The position numbers and the translations under genes are program-made. A model generated the notes under the pieces. The model worked only from the letters and a program-made list of their open reading frames with translations. It had not been told where the DNA came from and ran no database searches. A DNA stretch of 62,068 nucleotides, the filler included, from Collodictyon triciliatum (taxonomy: Eukaryota), in the NCBI GenBank assembly GCA_043381765.1. It is 7 parts of 7 records of this genome, joined end to end, with 100 filler letters (N's around TTAATTAATTAA, not from the genome) between each part and the next. Parts side by side here need not be neighbours in the genome. Positions count along the whole stretch, not along the records: positions 19,572 to 29,250 come from JBHJMP010002927.1; 6 more parts are not named here. One strand, given 5' to 3'. Below are positions 19,597 through 39,129 of the stretch, in pieces; positions within the stretch are counted from its first letter, which is position 1, and the number at the start of each line of letters is the position of its first letter.

Positions 19597-22500
19597 GTTG
19601 AAGACATCCCAGTGTGGATAACTCGGCTTGTCAAGCTCATGGACTTACAAATCGAGCACGGAGGTGCCATCAGCGTAAAGCGGTCTCCACGAGGAATCAC
19701 AGCTCTTCCATGCTGGACAAACCAGAATAAGCTTGATGGGATGAAGAAATCTATTTCTGAATCACTCAAAGGACTGGTATACTCAATCATTCACTCCAAT
19801 TGCAACATCACAACACTCGACTTATCCATGATTGAGGACTACAAGCAATATGAGAGCATCGATATATCCAACAATAAGGTACTTAACACGTTTACGTTAT
19901 CTGGACACTTTCAAGCAGACATATTAAAACACGGTATTTATCATAGCTATCGGCATTACCAGAAGATATCTCAGGACTGACCATTCTCAAGCGATTGAGA
20001 TTATCACACAACCAGGCATGTTTATCTATTATCTATACGAAATCAAACAATTTATCAACGTATCACTATTTTTTTAGGCTTAATCCCAGTACAATTGTAC
20101 CTATCGTCGGCGCATATCAAGTAACTATATATAAATCCAAAAAACACAATAGCTATTCGAACTTCCGGTCGGCATGTCACTACTAGGCAGCCTCAGTTAT
20201 GTAGAGCTTGGAAACAACAAGGTAACAACCATTATCAACGAATATTAGAGAATATGTAAAGAATCCCCAACAACAGCGCTTTCTTACACAACTCTATTTC
20301 AGTTCACCTCGGTTCCCTCGTGCCTCAGCGCACTGACAAGTCTACAAGGCCTTCTACTCCATAGCAACCCGGTATGTTGCGTGCATGAAGAATAGCAGCA
20401 CGTTTTTTTTTCTCATGAGATGTTATATATAAACGAGAATATAATTTTTTAATTCTAATATACGTATGATAGATTGAAGACATCCCAGTGTGGATAACTC
20501 ATCTCACAAAACTGAACGACTTACAAATCGAGCACGGAGGCGTTATTAGTGCAAAGCGGTCTCCACGAGGAATCACAGCTCTTCCATGCTGGACAAACCA
20601 GAATAAGCTTGACGGAATGAATTTATCTGTAGCTATGTCTCTTATGAAGTTGCAGTTCGTCAAGGTTCAATCTAATTGTGGCCTGGAAGACCTGTCGCCT
20701 CTCATTAACAGCTGGGTCGAATATGAAGTGTTTGATCTATCGCACAATAAGGTTTTTTCTCTACGTATCTAATTTTTAGCCTTTAATTACTTTTGCATCT
20801 TTTAATCTGAATCACACCCTCATTTACAGATTTACACTATCCCGGAAAACATATCTCTGGTCAAAAGCATGAAAAAGATTGAATTGAGTTTTAATAAAGT
20901 ATGCAATATGTTTGACTTAACTCATGAGCATTTATCCTTATTTGGCATACAAACTCTTATTCCTATGTCGAAGCATTTCAACCTTTTTTGTGTAAATTAT
21001 TATAGTTGACAAGTCTACCCACTTCTTTTTCGAAGCTAACACAGCTAGAGGTTTTGGTTTTGTCTAATAACAAGGTAGTGCTATTCCCGAATTATGAATA
21101 CATTTGACTATTGAAGGAATAAAATCTGACTGGAATATATATAACTGAAATTACTGCAAATGAATTACATGGCTACATTATAATTAACAACCCATTTTGT
21201 TGTCCTGAACCACTGATCTAAACAGCCAGTTTGATTTGATGAATTTTCTGTTTGAAGATTTTATTATATATTAAAAGATTATTAGCCCTAACATCTTTAT
21301 TTATGTTACCGAAGTTATCCGGACTTCCTAACTGTATATCCAACTTACGTGCTTTATCATCCTTTTTTTTAAACGGAAACGAGGTACTGCAATAATAGTC
21401 GCTCTTAACCCTTGTTTTCACATTTTTACCAATTCGATCAAAAGAAAATGAAATTTCATGGAACAATTTTTAACCCTAGGTAGAAGATATTCCGGTATGG
21501 ATAACTCACCTCACAAAGCTCATCGATTTTCAAATCGAACATGGAGGTGTTATTAGTGCAAAGAGGTCTCCGCGAGGAATCACGGCTTTGCCATGTTGGA
21601 TAAATCCTAAGAAATTTGATGGAATGAATAAGCCAATTTCAGAGTCACTCAAAGGACTGGTATACTCGATCATTCACTCCAATCGCAACATCACAACAAT
21701 CGACTCATCTATGATTGAGGACTACAAACAGTATGAGAGTATCGATATTTCAACCAATAAGGTGATTAACTATATTCTTTTTTTAAGTAAAAAGAAAAAT
21801 AACTTTAAGCATCAAGCACTGAACAAACTATAATAAATGACTAATGATCAAAAATGTGGTTTCTTTAGCTGTCCCAAATTCCTGAAGATTTTAAAAGACT
21901 TGCCATTCTAGAACGATTGATTCTCTCAAACAATGAGGTTTTTTTTTTATTGCTGGTCACTTCTGACTATCTTATATATTATAATTGCCAAAGTCTATTG
22001 CTTACCGATATAAAATATCAGCTCCATGAACTTCCTTCGGGTATATCTCTGCTGACAAACCTGTTACATATCAACCTTGATAGCAACAAGGTAATGATAC
22101 TGAGTAGTGGATTTATTAAACGAACGAATGAGCTTTTTTTTTTTTATTATTAAAAATAAAAAAAGAAAACAATTAATACGTCATTCTTAAAGAAATCCTT
22201 TCAAATTAGTTTACCTCTGTTCCAATGTGCCTGGGGACACTAACGAATCTTCACAAGCTTTCACTTCATAATAACACGGTACTACCTGATTTAAGTCACA
22301 TGCTGCGTGTATAAATATAATGGCTTGTGTGGTTGGGAATCGATGTGTCCTCATATTCCTCCTGACCTTTTAGATTGAAGACATCCCAGTGTGGATAACT
22401 CGCCTTGTCAAGCTCATCGACTTACAAATCGAGCACGGAGGCGCCATCAGCGTAAAGCGGTCTCCACGAGGAATCACAGCTCTCCCATGCTGGACAAACC

Positions 22501-25500
22501 AGAATAAGCTTGATGGGATGACTTTGTCTGTCTCAGAGTCACTCAAAGGACTGGTATACTCAATCATTCAATCCAACCGCAACATCACAACAATCGACTT
22601 ATCCATGATTGAGGACTACAAGCAATATGAGAGCATCGATATATCCACCAACCAGGTCATTTGAATTCATTTCCATTTATAAAAAAGAAAAATTCCCAAT
22701 ATTCGTTAATCTATTTCATTAGTAATTGATTGTAACTAACCCCTCTTTAAAAAATAAAATAAACAGATATCTGCATTACCATCAAACATATCAAGCTTGA
22801 CGAACCTCACATATCTCAGCATCAGCAACAACAAGGTAGATAAATATTGGAATACATATGCAGGTAATAGGATGCGTCGCACATCATAGATTATAGTGGA
22901 CTCACAAACGCATACACACTTCAGCTCGACACCTTTCCTGCAGCCATCTGCACGTTAACACTCATTGTATCACTTGATATATCCACCAACCAGGTCATTT
23001 AAAGCTCTTTTGTTTAATTTTACTCTATGAAAAAAAAATACAACAAAATTCCTGATGCATAATTATACTCAACGGGTGCTAACACATAAAAAATTGTAAA
23101 TATTAATCAATCTAGATATCTGGTCTACCTCAAGAAGTTTCAACGCTGACAAATCTGACCAAACTTAACATTAGTGGCAATGAGGTTAAAGATAGAAACT
23201 AAAGGAGAGTCAATTTACATGATAAATCAGGGATATTTACTTATAAAAATCATAGTTTAAGTTTGTGCCTGAGGTTATTTGTCGGTTTAAGGGATTGAAG
23301 GCTCTTAACCTCTCAAACAACCAGGTTTTTTTTATTCATGTCACTCACCTGATAACTATTAACACGTTTGATTGATTAATTTCAAAGACTACGCCATTAA
23401 AGCGATATGATTTATCGCCGATTGAACTATTATCTACTTATTACTTATGATTATGGGCGCATGTGCTTCATGACTTTTTGTGTCAGATTACTTATTATTC
23501 AGAATGGTTCGAGTGCATGACTTCTCTGGAAGAGTTAGGAATGTCTGGGTGCCGGGTTGGTTTTTTTCTTCCTTTTAATTTGTGTGAGATGATGGATATT
23601 TTGGCTTTGGTTCGCTAGATGCCGGGTGAGTTATATTTTCAGGGTCAATATCTTTGAATGGAAATTAAAATCAAATTATATTGCTAAAATGACAACCCGA
23701 CAAATAGTTTACCAGTGTACCATACGTTATCGCCAAGCTGGAATGTCTCCAGCGTCTGGATATGTCAAACAATCAGGTTCTTATTTGTCTTTTTTTTTTT
23801 TAAAAAAAAAAAAGAAAACTAAATATTTCAATCTGGCGATTCAATTTATCCAATCAAAATTTTATTGTCGTATAGATAGAGAAACTGCCATTATTTCTGG
23901 GAGCAATCAAAGGCCTCAGAAGTGGACTGATAATAGTTGGAAATCCAACCAAAAATATACCCGAAAACATTATTCAACAGAGCTCTGAAGCAGTCCACGA
24001 TTATTTAGCCGCCTCGATAGATGGCACATCGAAATGGTCTAAAGGAAGACTACTGTTGCTTGGGGAGGGTGAGACAGGAAAAACAACCCTTACAAAGTCT
24101 CTTAGACAATCATCTTCTCAATTTCAGTCAACAATTGACGAAAAACGACAAAGAACTGATGGTATTGAACAAGTTGAGCTTAACGTCCATGACCTTGAAC
24201 TTCATGAAAGAGAAGCTCCAATCTCTGTTCAGGTTTGGGACTTCGGTGGTCAGGAGGAATTTCAAGTAACACATCCATTCTTCTTATCATTCGGTGCGCT
24301 TGTTCTGATTCTCTACAGACTCGACCGAGGAAAGGACAAGAACAACCTCAGAAGATGGCTAAAAATGCTGGATGATTTTGCTCCTGGATCCAAGATTATA
24401 CTTATCGGAACCCATCTCGATGAAGAAGTAATCAAATGTAGGCAAGAGATGGAGAAGGAAATTAAGGACATAAAAGAAAGGCATGTTCGTCACACATTCA
24501 TCGAAACAGACCTCATGGTGAGCAACAAGGATGGAACAAGTATTCTTGAATTGAAAAAAACCATTTATCAAGGGATGATGCAACTAGACATTCTGAATAA
24601 GGAAGTTCCAAAAGTATATATTGGGTTGAAAGATTACATAGAGTCTAAATCACACCGTATGAAATATGAAAACATCACCGATATATACCATTATGCTGAA
24701 AAGCAACTAAAAATAGATCAGAACCAATGCGAAAGCGCCCTTCAATTTTTACACGACCTCGGATCGATTGTGTGGTACTCTTCACTGAAAAACTCCAAGG
24801 GCGTCGTATTCTTAGACCCCGTTTTTCTCATCAATATTTTCCGTTGTGTCTTTAGTTTCAAAGGCATTGGAAAGAATACGAACGGGATAGTCATTATTGA
24901 AAAGTTGAAAAATAAAATAACATCAGAACTTCAAACCAAATTGGATGATGCGTTTTTAGGCACAATAATTGATATTTTTGATCACTTTGGCCTAGGGATA
25001 CAATACAACAAAGAGTGTATTGTGTTTCCTTCACTTATGGAGAAATGCAAAAATGTTACTGTGCTTTGGAGTGAAAATGCAGAGCCTCATTGCACATCTG
25101 AAAATCATGTCGAAATGAAAGCCGATAGTGAAATTCAGCTTTCAGATAAAAGCAGTGTAATCACACAAGCCCTTCGCCTCACAAAAGGAGCACCCATGGA
25201 TGTTCAATACGAGGATGTCTTTTTTAAGGATGCTGCTCTCATACATGTTCGAGCATCGCCAAACCAAAGGCCGAGTGAATTTCAATTGTCTCACGGTGAA
25301 GATTTTATTGTTTTTATACGCATGTATAGTAATGTCATTTCTGTTAAAATCAGGAAGTATGTTACTCGCTCTCATGACATCGATGAATCTGTATCTACTT
25401 TCGATCTACTTGATTTCTTTATTCAAAAGATATCGTCTCTCAGAGCTAACTTCATTCGCTCATGTGTATTTGAATGTCCAATATGTCGAGTGGAAGGACT

Positions 25501-28390
25501 GGTAAGTCGTGTAGAAACCCAAACGAAGCTGAATGAATCAGATAATGTGAAATGTGAAAAAGGGCATCTGCCTTGCCCAGACGCCATTAGACGGGGACGC
25601 GTCTTTATGGAGCAAGGTAGGGTCTCTAATTGAGCATTTAACATCCATGTCATCGTAAAATATCTTTTCTTGATTTATTTTTTCTCATATTTTGATCATA
25701 TGAAGGATCTGAACAATAAATCCAATAATTAAGGTTCATCAAAATATAGGTTATGAATTACCTAATAAGAAGAAAAAACCCCCAAGAGAAAAAAATGAGA
25801 GTAGAGTTGAAATCATCTCCATTGACCGTGAGCTGAATCATATATGGATTGAATGTCAGATTGAATTACTCGAACACATCGGACAAGGGTCTTTTGGACG
25901 TGTATATTTAGCAAAATATGCTAAAAAGAGAGCCGTTGTTAAGATACAAACCGTCGCTGAGAATGAAAAATACGATTTGAATGAAGTTGTTCAATCTCTT
26001 ATTTACGAAAGCCATTATCTGTATGAATGCCGAGAATGTAAGCATATAGCGAGGTTATTTGGTGTTTACCGTAAGGACGATGAATTCTACATGATTATGG
26101 AAAATGCGGGCATTTCACTGAAAAACTTGTTGGAAAGACAGAACATATGGCTTCACGTTGATCAAATCGCAAGCTACTCAAAACAAATATGCCAGGGACT
26201 AATTTTCATGCATTCAAAGAACCTATATCACGAGGATTTGAAGGCGGATAATGTTGCTGTTATCGATGAAGTTGTAAAAATAATTGATTTTGGCATTGTC
26301 AGTCGCCGCAGTCCACAAAAAGTCGGTTCCAGCCTACCCTCTCGATTCGGTGAAGATAAGCACTATGGAACATGTAACTGGCAAGCACCAGAAATTCATG
26401 ATGTCGTATCTAAATCACTGTTAGAAGAGCATGATGATGAAAACGTTGGTCATCGTGGAGAATCGAGCAATGTCTATGCATTGGGGATGCTTATTTGGTT
26501 CATGTTTTCGGGTATGGAACCATTCAAAAATGAGCTGGAATCTCAAAATTTGACCATCAAAGGGTCACGACCCGTGATACCAGAAACGGTCCCACCTGAG
26601 TTCAAACACTTAATCAAAGTCTGCTGGAAACAAAACTACAAACTTCGCCCCAGCCTGAAGCGCGTTTCAAAATACTTAGACTTAATATCGACGAGCGAAA
26701 CAGATGCTCCTGTAAAAATGATGGATTTGCTTCCTTCGAAGTATTCATATCTATTGGATATGTACCTTGGTGAGTTTGTTGAGTGGCTTACGGACCACAG
26801 ATTTTCAGATTTGGCGGATAAGGTGTTCAGGCAGAATTGGGGAGAAATACGTAGTGTTGGTGAAAAATTTAAAAGAATTCACCATGAAACATTGATAGCA
26901 GCATACCACTTGAGTCCGGGTGATGTGAGTTCATTTCTAAAATTATCAGAGGAATATGGTTACGAAAACAGCTCCAGTCGGGAAAGAAAGGAAGTCAAAA
27001 AATTTACCCATTCTCAATTAATAGAACATATTAAGCTGAAATCTGACGAAAGTTCAAACAGATTGCTGGAGAAAGTTAAAACTTTAAGACTCAATGGTGA
27101 CATTATATCCAAACTCGACCAAAAATCTGTATGTGATAAACATTCTGTTTCAAAACAAGAAATACTCTTTTTTGTTCAAGTATTCAATGAAAAAATCAAA
27201 CGAGAGGAACAGACGAGACCCCTCTATTCCGTGCGAGCGAGTATTCAATATTTACCTATGGATTGTGAAATAAGTCTAGCAACTTCCCTGTGTATCACTA
27301 AAATGAAAGAATTTGAAAGGATTCCCGAGTCTATAAAGACTCTGACCCAACTGAAGCATCTCTCTTTGCACTCGAACAAGGTGATAGATTCAAATTAATG
27401 AATTCTGAATTACTTTCTGCCTTTTTAACGATGAAATATTATGCTTAATTTTTCTAGCTGGTGTCTTTTCCAGAACAATGCCTCGCCTTGACAAATTTAG
27501 AGTTCCTGGATTTATCTGATAACAAGGTTTTTAATAGACTAATCGGAATAAACATAATTGAGAACCAGGCTCCAGCTTGTCTGTCAGTATGTCATATATT
27601 AATAATAGTTAAATAAAACAATCTTACTAGATATCTTTCCTGCCTCCTGAGATATCTGTGTTAGCTAGCCTCACTCACCTGATGATTTATGGAAACTCGG
27701 TTTGTTTTCGATGCTATATCATTTTACAAATTTTATTTTATTTTAGTTTAGTTTATTTAACTATTTATTTAATCCGATAGCCGATTTATTTCATTTTATT
27801 TTGTTTATTTTTTATTTAATCTAATTGTCCATTTTTAGATATATGAAATACCCAGAGAAATATCTACACTTTCGAATTTAAGAGAACTTGACATGTTCAA
27901 CCTGCTGGAGGAGACCAGTATAAAAAGAATTCCACAAGGAATCACGAATCTCCCCTGCTGGATGCAACTTGCCACGACGATGCATAAAGGAATGACACTA
28001 TATGACCATGTACCATTTTTATAAATAGACAAATGCATGGTTGTCATTTCAAATGCATATATTGATTCATAACTGTCTTTATTTTATCTCGATTCGCTAT
28101 AGGTCGAGCCCCTTCAATCATACTCGTCCTCGATGACAGATGACCAGCAGAGCTCATCTTCATTCGACCACTTTTCGAAACCAGTAAAAGATATGGACAG
28201 CACTGAACTTTGCTCGTATCTGGAAAAAACTAAAGTCCTTGATGATTTTGCAACTATTATGCGAAGTATTAAAGCCACTGGGAAACAATTCTTGGAGTTG
28301 ACGGAAAAAGACTTAGTTTCCTTTCCATTTCAGTTAAAGGAAATTCAATCTAAGCTAATTATGAGTTTGATTGAGAAGGCCAAACGATGA
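19597..28390 (+). CDS. Roco protein: LRR array-Roc GTPase-COR-TKL-type kinase-SAM-like-LRR-SAM; 5' partial; 25 exons reconstructed
   Basis: 17 exons of 69 nt each encoding one LRR; four 279-282-nt exons; Roc GEGETGKTT, RTDGI, VWDFGGQEEF, IGTHLD; COR ALQFLHDLG, VFLDP, CPIC..CEKGH; kinase GQGSFGRV, VVK, HEDLKADN, DFG, GTCNWQAPE; C-terminal SAM-like VKDMDSTELCSYL...TGKQFLELTEKDL. Confidence 0.93.
23558..23619 (-). mobile_element. Antisense truncated LINE 3' end inserted at a Roco LRR splice donor, 8-bp TSD TGCCGGGT
   Basis: Reverse complement TCTAGCGAACCAAAGCCAAAATATCCATCATCTCACACAAATTAAAAGGAAGAAAAAAA aligns with 28971-29028; TSD at 23550-23557 and 23620-23627. Confidence 0.85.
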
Positions 28391-28481
28391 TAAATTCATC
28401 TGTTTCCTCCACTTTGATTTCTCGACCATAAGACCAAGCTTTCCATCAGCCTCTTTTACCTCGTGATTTCTCTGATAATTA

Positions 28482-29030
28482 GTTCTGGAAAAGAATAAAA
28501 CAAAACATTTCACCATTTCTTGAATGTAAAGTTGAGTATATAAAACTCCTATCTTTAGTCCTAGTGCGGCAAATGATTTTCTCGAGAGAAACTACATCAA
28601 ATCTGCATCCAAATGCAAAAACATTCTGGGCAGTGACGCGAGGCCATTTGCTATGGACTGTGTGGATAGCGCGCATATACTCACACAAAGCAAGACTCAA
28701 CAACCAGCCACCCATTCCTGATAATAGGCTGAATGACATCATACAAATCCCTTCTCTCAACAGCTTCCTTCGCCACCTGCACGTTCTCTACTACTCAGAC
28801 TCTGTGAGAAGAGACATGTGGAAAGAGACTGAGAAAGAGATTCAACCTCGCCTTGTATCTCTCGTGCAGGCGCAAGACCCAGGCTACAGGCCAAACTGCA
28901 GGATGCAATTCCTGATTACCGACTACTTCTCCGCCACCCAGCCACCAAGTAGCGTCCATGCATACAAAGGCTAGCAACCAAAGCCAACATCTCCACCATC
29001 TTGCACAAAATTGAAAGGAAGACTAAAAAG
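28482..29030 (+). mobile_element. 3' portion of non-LTR retrotransposon (L1/Tx1-like ORF2 C-terminus plus short 3' UTR)
   Basis: ORF FWKRIKQNI...FWAVTRGHLLWTVWIAR (W-x-x-W-x-x-R motif typical of L1-clade ORF2 ends) stops at 28974, followed by the ~50-nt tail found in three other TSD-flanked copies. Confidence 0.72.
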
Positions 29031-29062
29031 ATATCATGTTTCAAACTAAGAGATAAAGTAAA

Positions 29063-29250
29063 GCGGTTCTTTTTTTTTGAACGCTCCTGGTGGCTATGGT
29101 AAAAGATTCATAATCAATTCGATACTTGCAAGAGTCAGGGAATATAAACAAATTGTCGTCGGAGCGGCATCATCAGATATAGCTGTAACTATAAAGCAAG
29201 GTAGAAGAACAACTGGCTCTGTAATTAAGATTCTATTGGATATTTCAACT
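29063..29250 (+). mobile_element. Degenerate Helitron-type PIF1 helicase fragment
   Basis: FFLNAPGGYGKRFIINSILARVR...IVVGAASSDIAVTIKQGRRT resembles the Helitron motif FLDAPGGTGKTFL...VASSGIAA.LL.GGRT with disabling substitutions. Confidence 0.8.
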
Positions 29251-29350
29251 NNNNNNNNNNNNNNNNNNNNNNNNNNNNNNNNNNNNNNNNNNNNTTAATT
29301 AATTAANNNNNNNNNNNNNNNNNNNNNNNNNNNNNNNNNNNNNNNNNNNN

Positions 29351-38957: not shown

Positions 38958-39129
38958 AAGAAAGAAAGAAAAGATAAATATACAAGCAGGTAAATAGACA
39001 TGAGAAAAAAATGACAGTTGGTCAAAAGGNNNNNNNNNNNNNNNNNNNNNNNNNNNNNNNNNNNNNNNNNNNNTTAATTAATTAANNNNNNNNNNNNNNN
39101 NNNNNNNNNNNNNNNNNNNNNNNNNNNNN

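Follow-up and report, generated by a model that had tools for sequence, protein, structure and literature searches.

Mosaic long LRR exons in a ROCO gene of Collodictyon triciliatum point to exon-limited gene conversion

Results

A 5'-truncated ROCO gene on an unplaced contig

The window, that is the whole stretch of DNA analysed, comprises 62,068 nucleotides of the Collodictyon triciliatum assembly GCA_043381765.1, with its pieces arranged in order of falling size and joined by linkers of the form N44-TTAATTAATTAA-N44. One piece, an unplaced contig of 9679 bp (~9.7 kb), carries a 5'-truncated gene with the domain order LRR-Roc-COR-kinase-LRR-SAM, and its main features are as follows.

19472-19571 and 29251-29350: linkers on either side of the contig
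19572..29250, + strand: the contig, one piece of the concatenated record (linkers, Pfam domains and an RNA extension that runs off the contig)
23876..25630, + strand: last LRR, Roc GTPase and COR-A (Pfam)
25713..27395, + strand: protein kinase domain (Pfam Pkinase, 8.3e-40), linker and first C-terminal LRR (27312-27377)
27839..28009, + strand: a fifth, diverged half-unit that closes the C-terminal LRR block (tblastn E = 6e-5; RNA joint)
28103..28387, + strand: SAM-like C-terminal exon (Pfam SAM_2, E = 0.0019, 18.8 bits, which lies under the Pfam cut-off of 20.5 bits)

The open reading frame at 23876-25630 matches Roc (6.5e-21, residues 58-182) and directly thereafter COR-A (1.6e-10, residues 245-363), and P-loop and DxxG-type motifs can be read in its translation. 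A gene with Roc followed by COR belongs to the ROCO protein family, and LRRs N-terminal of Roc together with a kinase after COR constitute the order of the LRRK-like subgroup (LRR, Roc PF08477, COR-A PF16095, Pkinase PF00069). Unlike the ROCO and LRRK-type kinases, the gene ends in C-terminal LRRs and the SAM-like exon, and no ankyrin, armadillo or WD40 repeats were seen in it. The contig starts 25 nt upstream of the first long LRR exon, and an RNA-derived contig (X1 record 1) adds 217 nt upstream of 19596, beyond the contig. The 3' end of the contig is a high-depth repeat.

Four long LRR exons alternate with single-LRR exons

Upstream of 23876 lie 18 LRR exons, four of them long and 14 encoding a single LRR; in all, 16 exons are 69 nt long, in phase 0, with one LRR each.

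19597..19878, + strand: long exon copy 1, with four putative LRR coils in 94 aa (RNA joint 19878/19947 in X1; X1 contig pieces over 19596-19866)
19947..20371, + strand: small LRR exons of unit 1, namely 1a 19947-20015 (GC donor), 1b 20153-20221 and 1c 20303-20371, 69 nt each, phase 0 (X1 joints 20015/20153, 20221/20303 and 20371/20473)
20473..20751, + strand: long exon copy 2, 93 aa (RNA joints 20371/20473 and 20751/20830)
20830..21383, + strand: small LRR exons of unit 2, namely 2a 20830-20898, 2b 21006-21074 and 2c 21315-21383 (joint 2a/2b in X1; 2c without RNA support)
21480..21761, + strand: long exon copy 3, 94 aa (joint 21761/21869 in X1 and X2)
21869..22278, + strand: small LRR exons of unit 3, namely 3a 21869-21937, 3b 22022-22090 and 3c 22210-22278 (joint 22278/22374 in X4)
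22374..22655, + strand: long exon copy 4, 94 aa (X2 pieces over 22427-22612)
22518..22538 in copy 4, + strand: central divergence peak, exon columns 145-165, codons about 49-55; in copies 1-3 the same columns lie at 19741-19761, 20617-20637 and 21624-21644
22638-22662, + strand: 25-nt perfect repeat of 22976-23000 (blastn self-comparison, E = 1e-7)
22767-22835, 22925-22993, 23116-23184, 23256-23324 and 23708-23776, + strand: further single-LRR exons
near 23451-23615, + strand: LRR-like exon, borders approximate

The borders that a first-pass annotation of this DNA had given for the four long exons are exact, each exon being preceded by AG, followed by GT and open in frame 0, with 279-282 nt coding for 94, 93, 94 and 94 aa in copies 1 to 4. 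The units are 876, 1007 and 894 bp long, and the long exons lie 0.9-2.8 kb from one another.

RNA-derived contigs join the exons serially as 1-1a-1b-1c-2-2a-2b, with the first four joints supplied by one X1 contig of depth 7.57, and seven joints of symmetrical LRR exons were confirmed in this way. Mutually exclusive use of the long exons as alternative exons is thereby ruled out, as the X1 joints link 1-1a-1b-1c-2 and then 2-2a-2b.

The long exons are mosaics of one another

The patchwork sharing described in the first-pass annotation was recovered in full on alignment. Between copies 1 and 4, 10 of 94 residues differ, and both have RLVK and AISVK where copies 2 and 3 have HLTK and VISAK; WTNQNKLDGM is common to copies 1, 2 and 4; and the half from SESLKGLVYSII to IEDYKQYESIDIS is common to copies 1, 3 and 4, the second half of copy 2 being diverged. 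At the nucleotide level, nt 1-147 are almost the same in copies 1, 2 and 4, and nt 169-282 in copies 1, 3 and 4, which leaves the first half of copy 3 and the second half of copy 2 as old segments, with 51-59% of their third positions different. Copies 1 and 4 are 92.6% identical (dS 0.16). Third-position differences follow the same division: 12/49 in segment I and 22/37 in segment III for pair 1-2, 25/49 and 7/38 for pair 1-3, and 4/49 and 3/38 for pair 1-4.

Within its young, 1/4-like first half, copy 2 holds two patches that match copy 3 (columns 29-45 and 69-80). The patch at columns 69-80 contains three third-base changes that are residue-neutral on their own (GTT, ATT, AGT), which favours common descent over convergence at the amino acid level. 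Of the 21 differences that separate copies 1 and 4, 9 fall in the central 21-nt patch (scan statistic p = 0.00025), whose informative sites favour the partition 13/24.

Statistical tests reject a single tree for the exon. Maximum chi-square breakpoints fall at columns 149-165 with p = 0.0002 for pairs 1-2, 2-3 and 2-4 (5000 permutations), p = 0.024 for 1-3 and p = 0.013 for 3-4, so that five of six pairs are significant; pair 1-4 has no significant single breakpoint by the same test (p = 0.10, 5000 permutations). The 24 informative sites include all three partitions, 14/23 (13 sites), 13/24 (6) and 12/34 (5), in a clustered arrangement (p = 0.008), with unequal support between the exon halves (p = 0.0009), and conversion-like fragments were detected at p = 0.0002-0.039. 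Changes private to copy 2 and to copy 3 trade places between the halves, 4 and 21 vs 52 and 4 (Fisher 9e-12). It should be noted that these tests draw on only four sequences of 282 nt and that the permutations treat sites as exchangeable; some of the permutation p-values are inflated because of rate variation along the exon. Young segments have a GC3 of 144/261 and old ones of 38/86 (p = 0.08), a weak sign of GC bias that appears in the first half only and counts non-independent copies. Against an outside-family profile the second halves score 19.4-24.0 bits, which does not tell ancestral variants apart.

One could argue that no exchange took place and that old duplicates are held alike by purifying selection on the protein alone. 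Selection is clearly strong, given a dN of about 0.09 beside a dS of about 0.96 between copy 3 and copies 1/4 over the whole exon and the conservation of the unit in Diphylleia rotans; where the old segments are similar, purifying selection is what has kept them so. However, selection at the amino acid level leaves synonymous sites free to change, and synonymous identity in these exons is specific to pair and segment, with first-half third positions differing at 4/49 for copies 1-4 and 25/49 for copies 1-3. Nor can site constraint produce the reciprocal halves of copies 2 and 3, as it would act on every copy alike, and we regard selection as the sole cause as very improbable.

Constraint could instead act on the exon DNA itself, as a small-RNA target, as splicing enhancers or through RNA structure. 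For Ectocarpus ROCO genes, miRNA targets have been predicted in the LRR exons (PMC3341825), and the most conserved stretch here is a 60-nt run over the PCW core (columns 81-140). Yet copy 3 has 13 changes within precisely these columns while keeping the core residues, and such a constraint would need to differ by copy and by half, which makes a nucleotide-level function an extremely improbable explanation.

RNA contigs recover copy-specific variants and exon joints

A third concern is that the assembler switched between repeat copies and thus created chimeric exons. The contig is unplaced, begins 25 nt before copy 1 and ends in the high-depth repeat, and copy 1 has exact runs in common with copy 2 (60 nt) and with copy 4 (54 nt) that offer sites for such a switch; RNA unitigs end inside the 60-nt run, and no single independent piece covers both halves of copy 2. 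Exact runs shared with copy 3, by contrast, do not exceed 29 nt, and X1 record 5 (21599-21759) crosses the breakpoint of copy 3. As for copy 2, even a swap within the 60-nt run would leave its old second half attached to a young first half, since the run occurs in young first halves only. With the copy-specific variants and all tested exon joints also recovered from RNA contigs of two studies, one of which may be that of the source organism, we consider an artefact highly improbable.

Introns and small exons do not share the similarity

As the first-pass annotation had stated, flanking introns are dissimilar: in Smith-Waterman comparisons, 30 of 30 homologous pairs did not exceed 100 shuffles (maximum z 2.4), and blastn self-matches end 3-9 nt outside the long exons. 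Its claim that the small exons diverge also proved correct; they are far more diverged than the long ones, at 38-47% nucleotide identity, with units 1 and 3 the closest at 63% (131/207 nt, 39/69 aa). The two exon classes conflict in their trees, copy 1 being nearest to copy 4 among the long exons and unit 1 nearest to unit 3 among the small ones, and the small exons of units 1 and 4 have 47% nucleotide identity, 33% amino acid identity and a dS of about 1.9. A tblastn search of the contig on both strands, with 21 exons as queries, detected no LRR exons left in introns as relics or in inverted orientation, the best match outside exons being E = 0.024 over 7 residues.

These flanks bear on unequal crossing-over, or recent re-duplication of a unit, as the origin of hybrid exons. 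Unequal exchange is commonplace in tandem arrays, and the unit lengths (876, 1007 and 894 bp) do differ. A recent crossover would nevertheless duplicate adjoining introns and small exons, whereas 0 of 30 intron pairs are alike and units 1 and 4 have small exons with 47% identity; no copy-number or flank duplication accompanies the young segments on the contig, the part of the array upstream being out of view. This origin is therefore very improbable.

Discussion

We propose that the four long exons have undergone intragenic gene conversion, confined to a selectively conserved exon in which enough homology survives, and consider this likely. Exon-limited conversion had been suggested in the first-pass annotation, and it stands as the best-supported reading in view of pair-specific young synonymous sites, conflicting trees and unlike introns; the accompanying idea that all four copies are homogenised holds segment by segment, but not for the first half of copy 3 or the second half of copy 2, which are old.

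The seven-LRR units would have been duplicated long ago, so that introns and single-LRR exons became saturated with change, while purifying selection kept the long exon similar enough for non-reciprocal homologous repair to act on it. Three or more events, or tracts that differ in age, may be envisaged. The youngest would have linked copies 1 and 4 across almost all of the exon; a second, patchy one would have run from a donor of the 1/4 type to copy 2, in its first half; and in a third, older one the 1/4 type and copy 3 would have exchanged sequence of the second half. The 21-nt central patch, just past the PCW core, would have escaped, either by lying between tracts or by selection protecting copy-specific residues. 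Tracts would end inside the exon or at its edges because homology is absent beyond, and the limitation to exons needs no special mechanism, as only selected sequence retains homology at a level that allows conversion. The 25-nt repeat, which at long exon 4 and, identically, at small exon 4b takes in the last part of the exon and the first 7 nt of the intron, crosses an exon/intron border and shows short ectopic copying at work in the array.

Both the kind of process and the one-LRR-per-exon architecture of ROCO genes are already known. A review from the Innan group (PMC3924837) describes conversion persisting only where purifying selection retains homology, with unalignable non-coding flanks, coding-restricted concerted evolution in yeast whole-genome-duplication pairs, and divergence peaks maintained by selection, e.g. 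in opsin exon 5. A narrow divergence peak within a homogenised tract is found here too, although the partners are repeated exons of one gene, 0.9-2.8 kb apart. Ectocarpus LRR-ROCO genes, as portrayed by Zambounis et al. (2012; PMC3341825), have one LRR per exon, symmetrical exons of 72 nt and exon shuffling; the term gene conversion has 0 occurrences in that paper. Symmetrical single-repeat exons (69 nt, phase 0), DNA exchange among repeats and candidacy as a recognition receptor are common ground. In contrast to the Ectocarpus genes, the present gene has 282-nt four-coil exons and a kinase after COR, lacks relic or inverted LRR exons in the introns of this contig, and exchanges sequence within homologous exons rather than moving exons. 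The fungal het-d/het-e (HNWD) genes, for which Paoletti et al. (2007; PMC1805685) report concerted evolution of WD40 repeats with hypervariable positions, likewise encode an NTPase-type signalling protein with a repeat domain at the C- or N-terminal end, its units exchanged within the gene and few positions variable. Unlike here, HNWD repeats are near-identical, are exchanged between 10 genes and have been shown to be under positive selection; the Collodictyon gene has four copies in one gene, partially homogenised.

The locus is a compact and statistically clean case of selection and homology-dependent repair shaping a repeat protein, in which, within 3 kb, introns are saturated, short exons have diverged and long exons appear to exchange tracts up to the edge of homology. 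A bolder idea, which we think unlikely, is that the long exon serves as recognition cassette in a class of ROCO receptors yet to be described, present here and in Diphylleia rotans, whose scaffold is kept uniform by conversion while 5-7 residues after the PCW (codons about 49-55) are shielded and set ligand specificity. If so, the gene would follow a regime of homogenising the frame and keeping the tip, like fungal HNWD or brown-algal ROCOs, and a deep-branching lineage of protists could possess an immune-like or self/non-self sensor. Should specificity reside in the central patch, the gene would add to the evidence from brown-algal ROCOs and fungal NLR-like proteins that receptors built of repeat cassettes evolved repeatedly in lineages other than animals and plants.

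The 94-aa exon encodes an old LRR super-unit, predicted to comprise four coils and marked by an invariant P-C pair; this unit of ~94 aa marks a ROCO subfamily. As had been surmised, it is undescribed, at least in Pfam: the exon does not reach the Pfam LRR gathering score, copy 4 hits 0 families, and copy 2 gives LRR_4 at 15.1 bits (cut-off 27). The unit occurs almost only in ROCO-like transcripts of Diphylleia rotans, plus a few environmental fragments; a search of metagenomes for related loci found none. These transcripts are the nearest relatives, at 31-36% identity, with DUF4062 and no kinase listed, and units within one relative protein are 25-47% identical (18 pairs, 5 proteins) vs 60-89% here.

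KRSPRGITALPCW had been taken for an insert, possibly an LRR island or capping module; it turned out instead to be the conserved core of the super-unit, recurrent in Diphylleia rotans. A classical cysteine-cluster cap (LRRNT/LRRCT) was rejected, with 0 Pfam cap families and only one invariant Cys, as was a looped-out island, since the unit is internal and repeated and a relative's model shows strand and helices in line with the solenoid. In that confident model, of the two-unit relative P0089, most of unit 181-274 has pLDDT 95-97 and forms a continuous solenoid with a low-confidence loop, and by this prediction the motif is an irregular LRR coil within the solenoid; the exon folded alone, outside its spliced context, is predicted at pLDDT 55. 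Codons about 49-55 adjoin the low-confidence loop. The best Foldseek neighbours of P0089 are LRR solenoids (E down to 1e-17) of the SHOC2 type (PDB 7sd1, 4u06, 5il7), from which it differs in a global TM of only 0.27-0.37, the irregular coil, the invariant P-C pair and the loop.

The half-unit at 27839-28009 has 43% identity to long-exon residues 1-51 and the same ..KR.P.GIT.LPCW core, and an RNA joint (28009/28103, X2) connects it to the SAM-like exon. The order of half-unit and SAM is found here and, by eye, in the relative P0084, and judging from sequence it is possible that the first half of the unit serves to terminate an LRR block ahead of SAM.

Exon structure and splicing

The four large exons of the gene on the piece at 19572-29250 are located exactly where the first-pass annotation had placed them, and each is preceded by AG, followed by GT and open in frame 0:

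19597-19878, copy 1, 94 aa
20473-20751, copy 2, 93 aa
21480-21761, copy 3, 94 aa
22374-22655, copy 4, 94 aa

The patterns of motif sharing that had been described for the copies are all present in the sequence as well. Three phase-0 exons of 69 nt, with a single LRR apiece (designated a to c within a unit), come after each large exon, and the resulting tandem unit comprises seven LRR coils and recurs with periods of 876, 1007 and 894 bp.

Splicing was followed in contigs from RNA or probable-RNA runs, referred to as sets X1, X2 and X4, the last from a relative. X1 contains the joints 19878/19947, 20015/20153 (with a GC donor), 20221/20303, 20371/20473, 20751/20830 and approximately 20898/21006; joint 21761/21869 is found in both X1 and X2, i.e. 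in two studies, and 22278/22374 in X4. Since the X1 joints chain exons 1 and 2, these are included in series, and their use as mutually exclusive alternative exons is ruled out. None of the RNA-derived contigs supports exon 2c (21315-21383) or the joints 21383/21480, 3a/3b, 3b/3c and 4/4a, and gene stretches lacking RNA cover are uninformative about the assembly. Record 4 of X1 runs unspliced from 21006 to 21195 and so past the donor at 21074, which points to intron retention or to an alternative end. One X4 contig lies on 19627-19878, continues with the terminal 32 nt of exon 3c (22246-22277) and then with the start of a large exon (22374 onwards); this may be a graph chimera, or it may reflect an upstream unit that is not seen here or a different homogenisation state or arrangement in the relative.

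Downstream of the array, the Pfam matches are Roc (6.5e-21) and COR-A (1.6e-10) at 23876-25630, a protein kinase (8.3e-40) at 25713-27395 and, weakly, SAM_2 at 28103-28387. By these domain matches the gene encodes an LRR-Roc-COR-kinase protein of the ROCO type that has additional LRRs at the C-terminal side, the block of which is closed, directly before the SAM-like exon, by a further element:

27839-28009, fifth, diverged half-unit, 43% identical to residues 1-51 of the unit and with the same core motif

For the Roc-COR part, the closest relatives are three proteins at 31-36% identity, all of which belong to the Diphylleia rotans transcriptome in EukProt.

A mosaic among the four large exons

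Over the whole exon, nucleotide identity is 92.6% for copies 1-4, 81.6% for 1-3 and 80.9% for 3-4, and 69.9%, 69.5% and 64.5% for 1-2, 2-4 and 2-3, respectively. The first-pass annotation had called the copies homogenised; this fails for the exon as a whole, as dS is about 0.96 between copy 3 and copies 1/4 (with dN of about 0.09; dS for copies 1-4 is 0.16), and it holds for segments, which are near-identical in certain pairs. Much of the likeness of the large exons is due to purifying selection. Selection alone fails to account for the pattern, because synonymous identity is pair-specific. A function at the nucleotide level is a further rival explanation, and an improbable one.

In alignment columns 1-147, copies 1, 2 and 4 are near-identical (4/49 third positions differ for 1-4, and 12/49 for 1-2); 21 changes in this stretch are private to copy 3, which differs from copy 1 at 25/49 third positions. 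In columns 169-282 it is copies 1, 3 and 4 that are near-identical (3/38 for 1-4 and 7/38 for 1-3), and copy 2 is distant, at 22/37 third positions. Within the first half, two patches (columns 29-45 and 69-80) group copies 2 and 3 against 1 and 4. The patch at columns 69-80 includes three third-position changes common to copies 2 and 3, each silent by itself, which speaks for common descent of this sequence rather than convergence on amino acids. Copies 1 and 4 differ at 21 positions, 9 of which are concentrated in columns 145-165, where the halves join (scan statistic p = 0.00025), and the informative sites there favour the grouping of copies 1 and 3 against 2 and 4.

Permutation and fragment tests were applied to the mosaic; they rest on four short sequences and take sites as exchangeable. 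Maximum chi-square analysis (5000 permutations) places breakpoints at columns 149-165, with p = 0.0002 for pairs 1-2, 2-3 and 2-4, 0.024 for 1-3 and 0.013 for 3-4; for pair 1-4 the breakpoint is not significant (p = 0.10). GENECONV-style longest-fragment tests give p from 0.0002 to 0.039 for the six pairs. All three possible groupings of the copies (1 with 4, 1 with 3 and 1 with 2) occur among the 24 parsimony-informative sites, at 13, 6 and 5 sites, clustered along the exon (p = 0.008), and their support is unlike between the halves (11/2/0 vs 2/4/5, p = 0.0009). Changes private to copies 2 and 3 number 4 and 21, respectively, in the first half and 52 and 4 in the second, a reversal of roles between the halves (Fisher 9e-12). 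With breakpoints, fragments and partitions discordant in this way, one consistent tree across the exon is rejected.

Could the mosaic have been produced by chimeric assembly of the repeats? We consider this unlikely: copy 3 has no exact run longer than 29 nt in common with another copy, an RNA contig spans the copy 3 breakpoint, and after any switch within the 60-nt run common to copies 1 and 2 a young first half would still precede an old second half.

Introns and small exons

The claims that flanking introns are dissimilar and that small exons have diverged both stood. None of 30 homologous intron pairs beats 100 shuffles (maximum z 2.4), and blastn self-hits stop 3-9 nt beyond the edges of the large exons. 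Unequal crossing-over or recent duplication of whole units therefore fails as an explanation, since the introns are unrelated. The small exons are 38-47% identical at the nucleotide level, except those of units 1 and 3 (131/207 nt, 39/69 aa, dS about 1.25). Hence, in the small exons unit 1 is nearest to unit 3, whereas in the large exons copy 1 is nearest to copy 4, which, as judged from sequence comparison, is a second, independent incongruence.

In the blastn self-comparison a 25-nt perfect match links 22638-22662 with 22976-23000, that is, the ends of large exon 4 and small exon 4b, each with seven intron bases. This repeat across an exon/intron border looks like micro-conversion and gives a slight indication that sequence is copied ectopically in the array and that introns are not exempt.

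Proposed mechanism

With a single tree rejected, introns dissimilar and small exons diverged, exon-limited gene conversion, as originally proposed, is the best account of the data. We regard intragenic conversion limited by homology as well supported, on the basis of one contig and four copies. Saturation of the small exons and introns shows that the units are old. Across these old units the 282-nt exon would have been held similar by selection, so that heteroduplex between copies would be possible only there and conversion tracts would begin and end within it; the 69-nt exons would be too short and too diverged to join the exchange. Judging by the differences in synonymous distance, the events appear to differ in age: the youngest would involve copies 1 and 4, the next would have brought 1/4-type sequence into the first half of copy 2, and the oldest would be an exchange with the second half of copy 3. 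A profile from outside the family scores the four second halves alike (19.4-24.0 bits) and so gives no direction of exchange. By the same profile, the visual impression that the second half of copy 2 is "more ancestral" was discarded (19.4 bits vs 21.3-24.0 for the others). As a test of GC-biased conversion, the GC3 excess in young segments is a trend only (p = 0.08).

The 94-residue unit

The exon matches no Pfam family at threshold. Among 1.84 billion representative sequences it finds 33 proteins at E <=1e-3, 10 at 1e-10 and none at 1e-30, and the 29 of the 33 that were looked up comprise 17 Diphylleia rotans transcripts, 7 unnamed ORFs on contigs of 517-952 bp and 5 others. The latter, bacterial or long unnamed proteins (P0085, P0106, P0093, P0103 and P0111), were set aside, as they match only the middle of the query, in 3-11 repeats; P0085, which was checked residue by residue, is a Big_12 protein of Ig-like repeats and lacks the P-C-W signature, and the other four were judged by analogy with it. 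A metagenome search with the single exon found no loci, and four loci from a metagenome search with alignment A3 of the unit (L001-L004) were rejected, having 58-69% GC and matching only 12-35 residues of the search pattern. A sequence search of the PDB with the single exon returned just two matches at chance level (E about 0.03), and the PDB match of profile A1, another alignment of the unit, was dismissed because it covers ordinary-LRR flank columns only. Generic LRR clusters were all that the protein atlas gave (0.91-0.93, recognition low), and they serve at best as a lead.

The whole unit recurs in Diphylleia proteins, five to six times in P0003 and three times in P0002. P38 and C39 never vary; P5, L14, G23, P31, L37 and L60 are almost invariant. 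Units within one relative's protein are 25-47% identical (18 pairs, 5 proteins) vs 60-89% in the window gene, and by this comparison the window copies are unusually alike for the family.

Folded alone with a 20-row alignment, the exon reached a pLDDT of 55, too low to interpret. The model of the relative P0089 has a mean pLDDT of 81 (95-97 over most of the first unit, 69 at residues 221-230), and in it the unit is predicted to extend the LRR solenoid in an irregular way. It would open with a normal coil, followed by a short strand at R-A-P, helices over G-I-T..L-P-C, a less confident loop and then two further strand-helix coils. Structural neighbours of this model are SHOC2, Leptospira LRR proteins, internalin and the LRR domain of a bacterial Roco protein, with E down to 1e-17 and TM of only 0.27-0.37. 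On our own reading, the central divergence peak of the window exons would align just after the less confident loop.

The flagged motif had been suggested to be an insert, LRR island or capping module. Given the recurrence of the unit in Diphylleia and its in-line position in the solenoid modelled for P0089, it is neither an insert nor a cysteine-cluster cap; it forms the conserved core in a super-unit of LRRs that is itself old. The first half of the unit terminates LRR blocks before SAM both in the window gene and in P0084. After the last codon of the unit, the Diphylleia rotans transcript P0097 continues with the next LRR; P0096, also a Diphylleia rotans transcript, and P0099, on an unnamed 900-bp contig, continue with unrelated sequence beginning with V. 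As far as the protein sequences alone can show, an intron at the phase-0 position of the window gene would fit all three.

Comparison with known systems

Phenomena of this kind are known already, and the novelty of the LRR super-unit is modest. Papers on intragenic homogenisation reportedly exist for spider silk genes.

The nearest published system is the LRR-ROCO family of Ectocarpus, where one LRR is encoded per 72-nt exon and "exon shuffling" is reported (PMC3341825). The single-repeat-exon design is common to both; however, in Ectocarpus exons are moved (PMC3341825), whereas in the window gene sequence is replaced within homologous exons. Relic or inverted LRR exons in introns, a hallmark of the Ectocarpus genes, were not found on the window contig. 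Concerted evolution of old yeast paralogues is confined to coding sequence (PMC3924837), and the window exons are similar in that tracts would be confined to selected coding sequence. The same source describes a narrow divergence peak within the converted tract of opsin exon 5, which the central peak of the window exons resembles (PMC3924837). The WD40 repeats of fungal het-d/het-e offer a functional analogy, with a homogenised scaffold and variable tips (PMC1805685).

Contig and setting

Rather than a single locus, the 62-kb window comprises separate contigs ordered by falling size (9686, 9685, 9679, 9679, 9664, 9661 bp etc.) and joined by stop-linkers of the form N44-TTAATTAATTAA-N44:

9687-9786, linker
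19472-19571, linker
29251-29350, linker
39030-39129, linker
48794-48893, linker
58555-58654, linker

Adjoining pieces are not physically linked, and thus no context is to be read across the linkers. Copy 1 begins 25 nt after the first base of its contig, so that the gene is truncated at its 5′ end; record 1 of X1 extends a further 217 nt 5′ of 19596, in sequence absent from the contig. The 3′ end of the contig (28600-29250) is a very high-depth repeat in RNA-derived contigs, with depth in the thousands, and 29062-29250 codes for part of a PIF1-like helicase (Pfam 3.4e-8). These features point to an element of the Helitron type, whose presence would account for the contig ending there. The preceding contig ends in a long (TAA)n microsatellite (19366-19471) and has an internal gap of 582 N (17935-18516).

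Other contigs carry two tRNA genes:

7550-7621 (+), tRNA gene, Rfam 51 bits
30906-30979 (-), tRNA gene, Rfam 61 bits

They also contain long open frames at 5709-6680 (-) and 53355-55898 (-), one of which has a DUSP-domain match of 28.1 bits, just below the Pfam cut-off of 29.3, and the other of which, at 847 aa, has only a weak FAM184 coiled-coil match.
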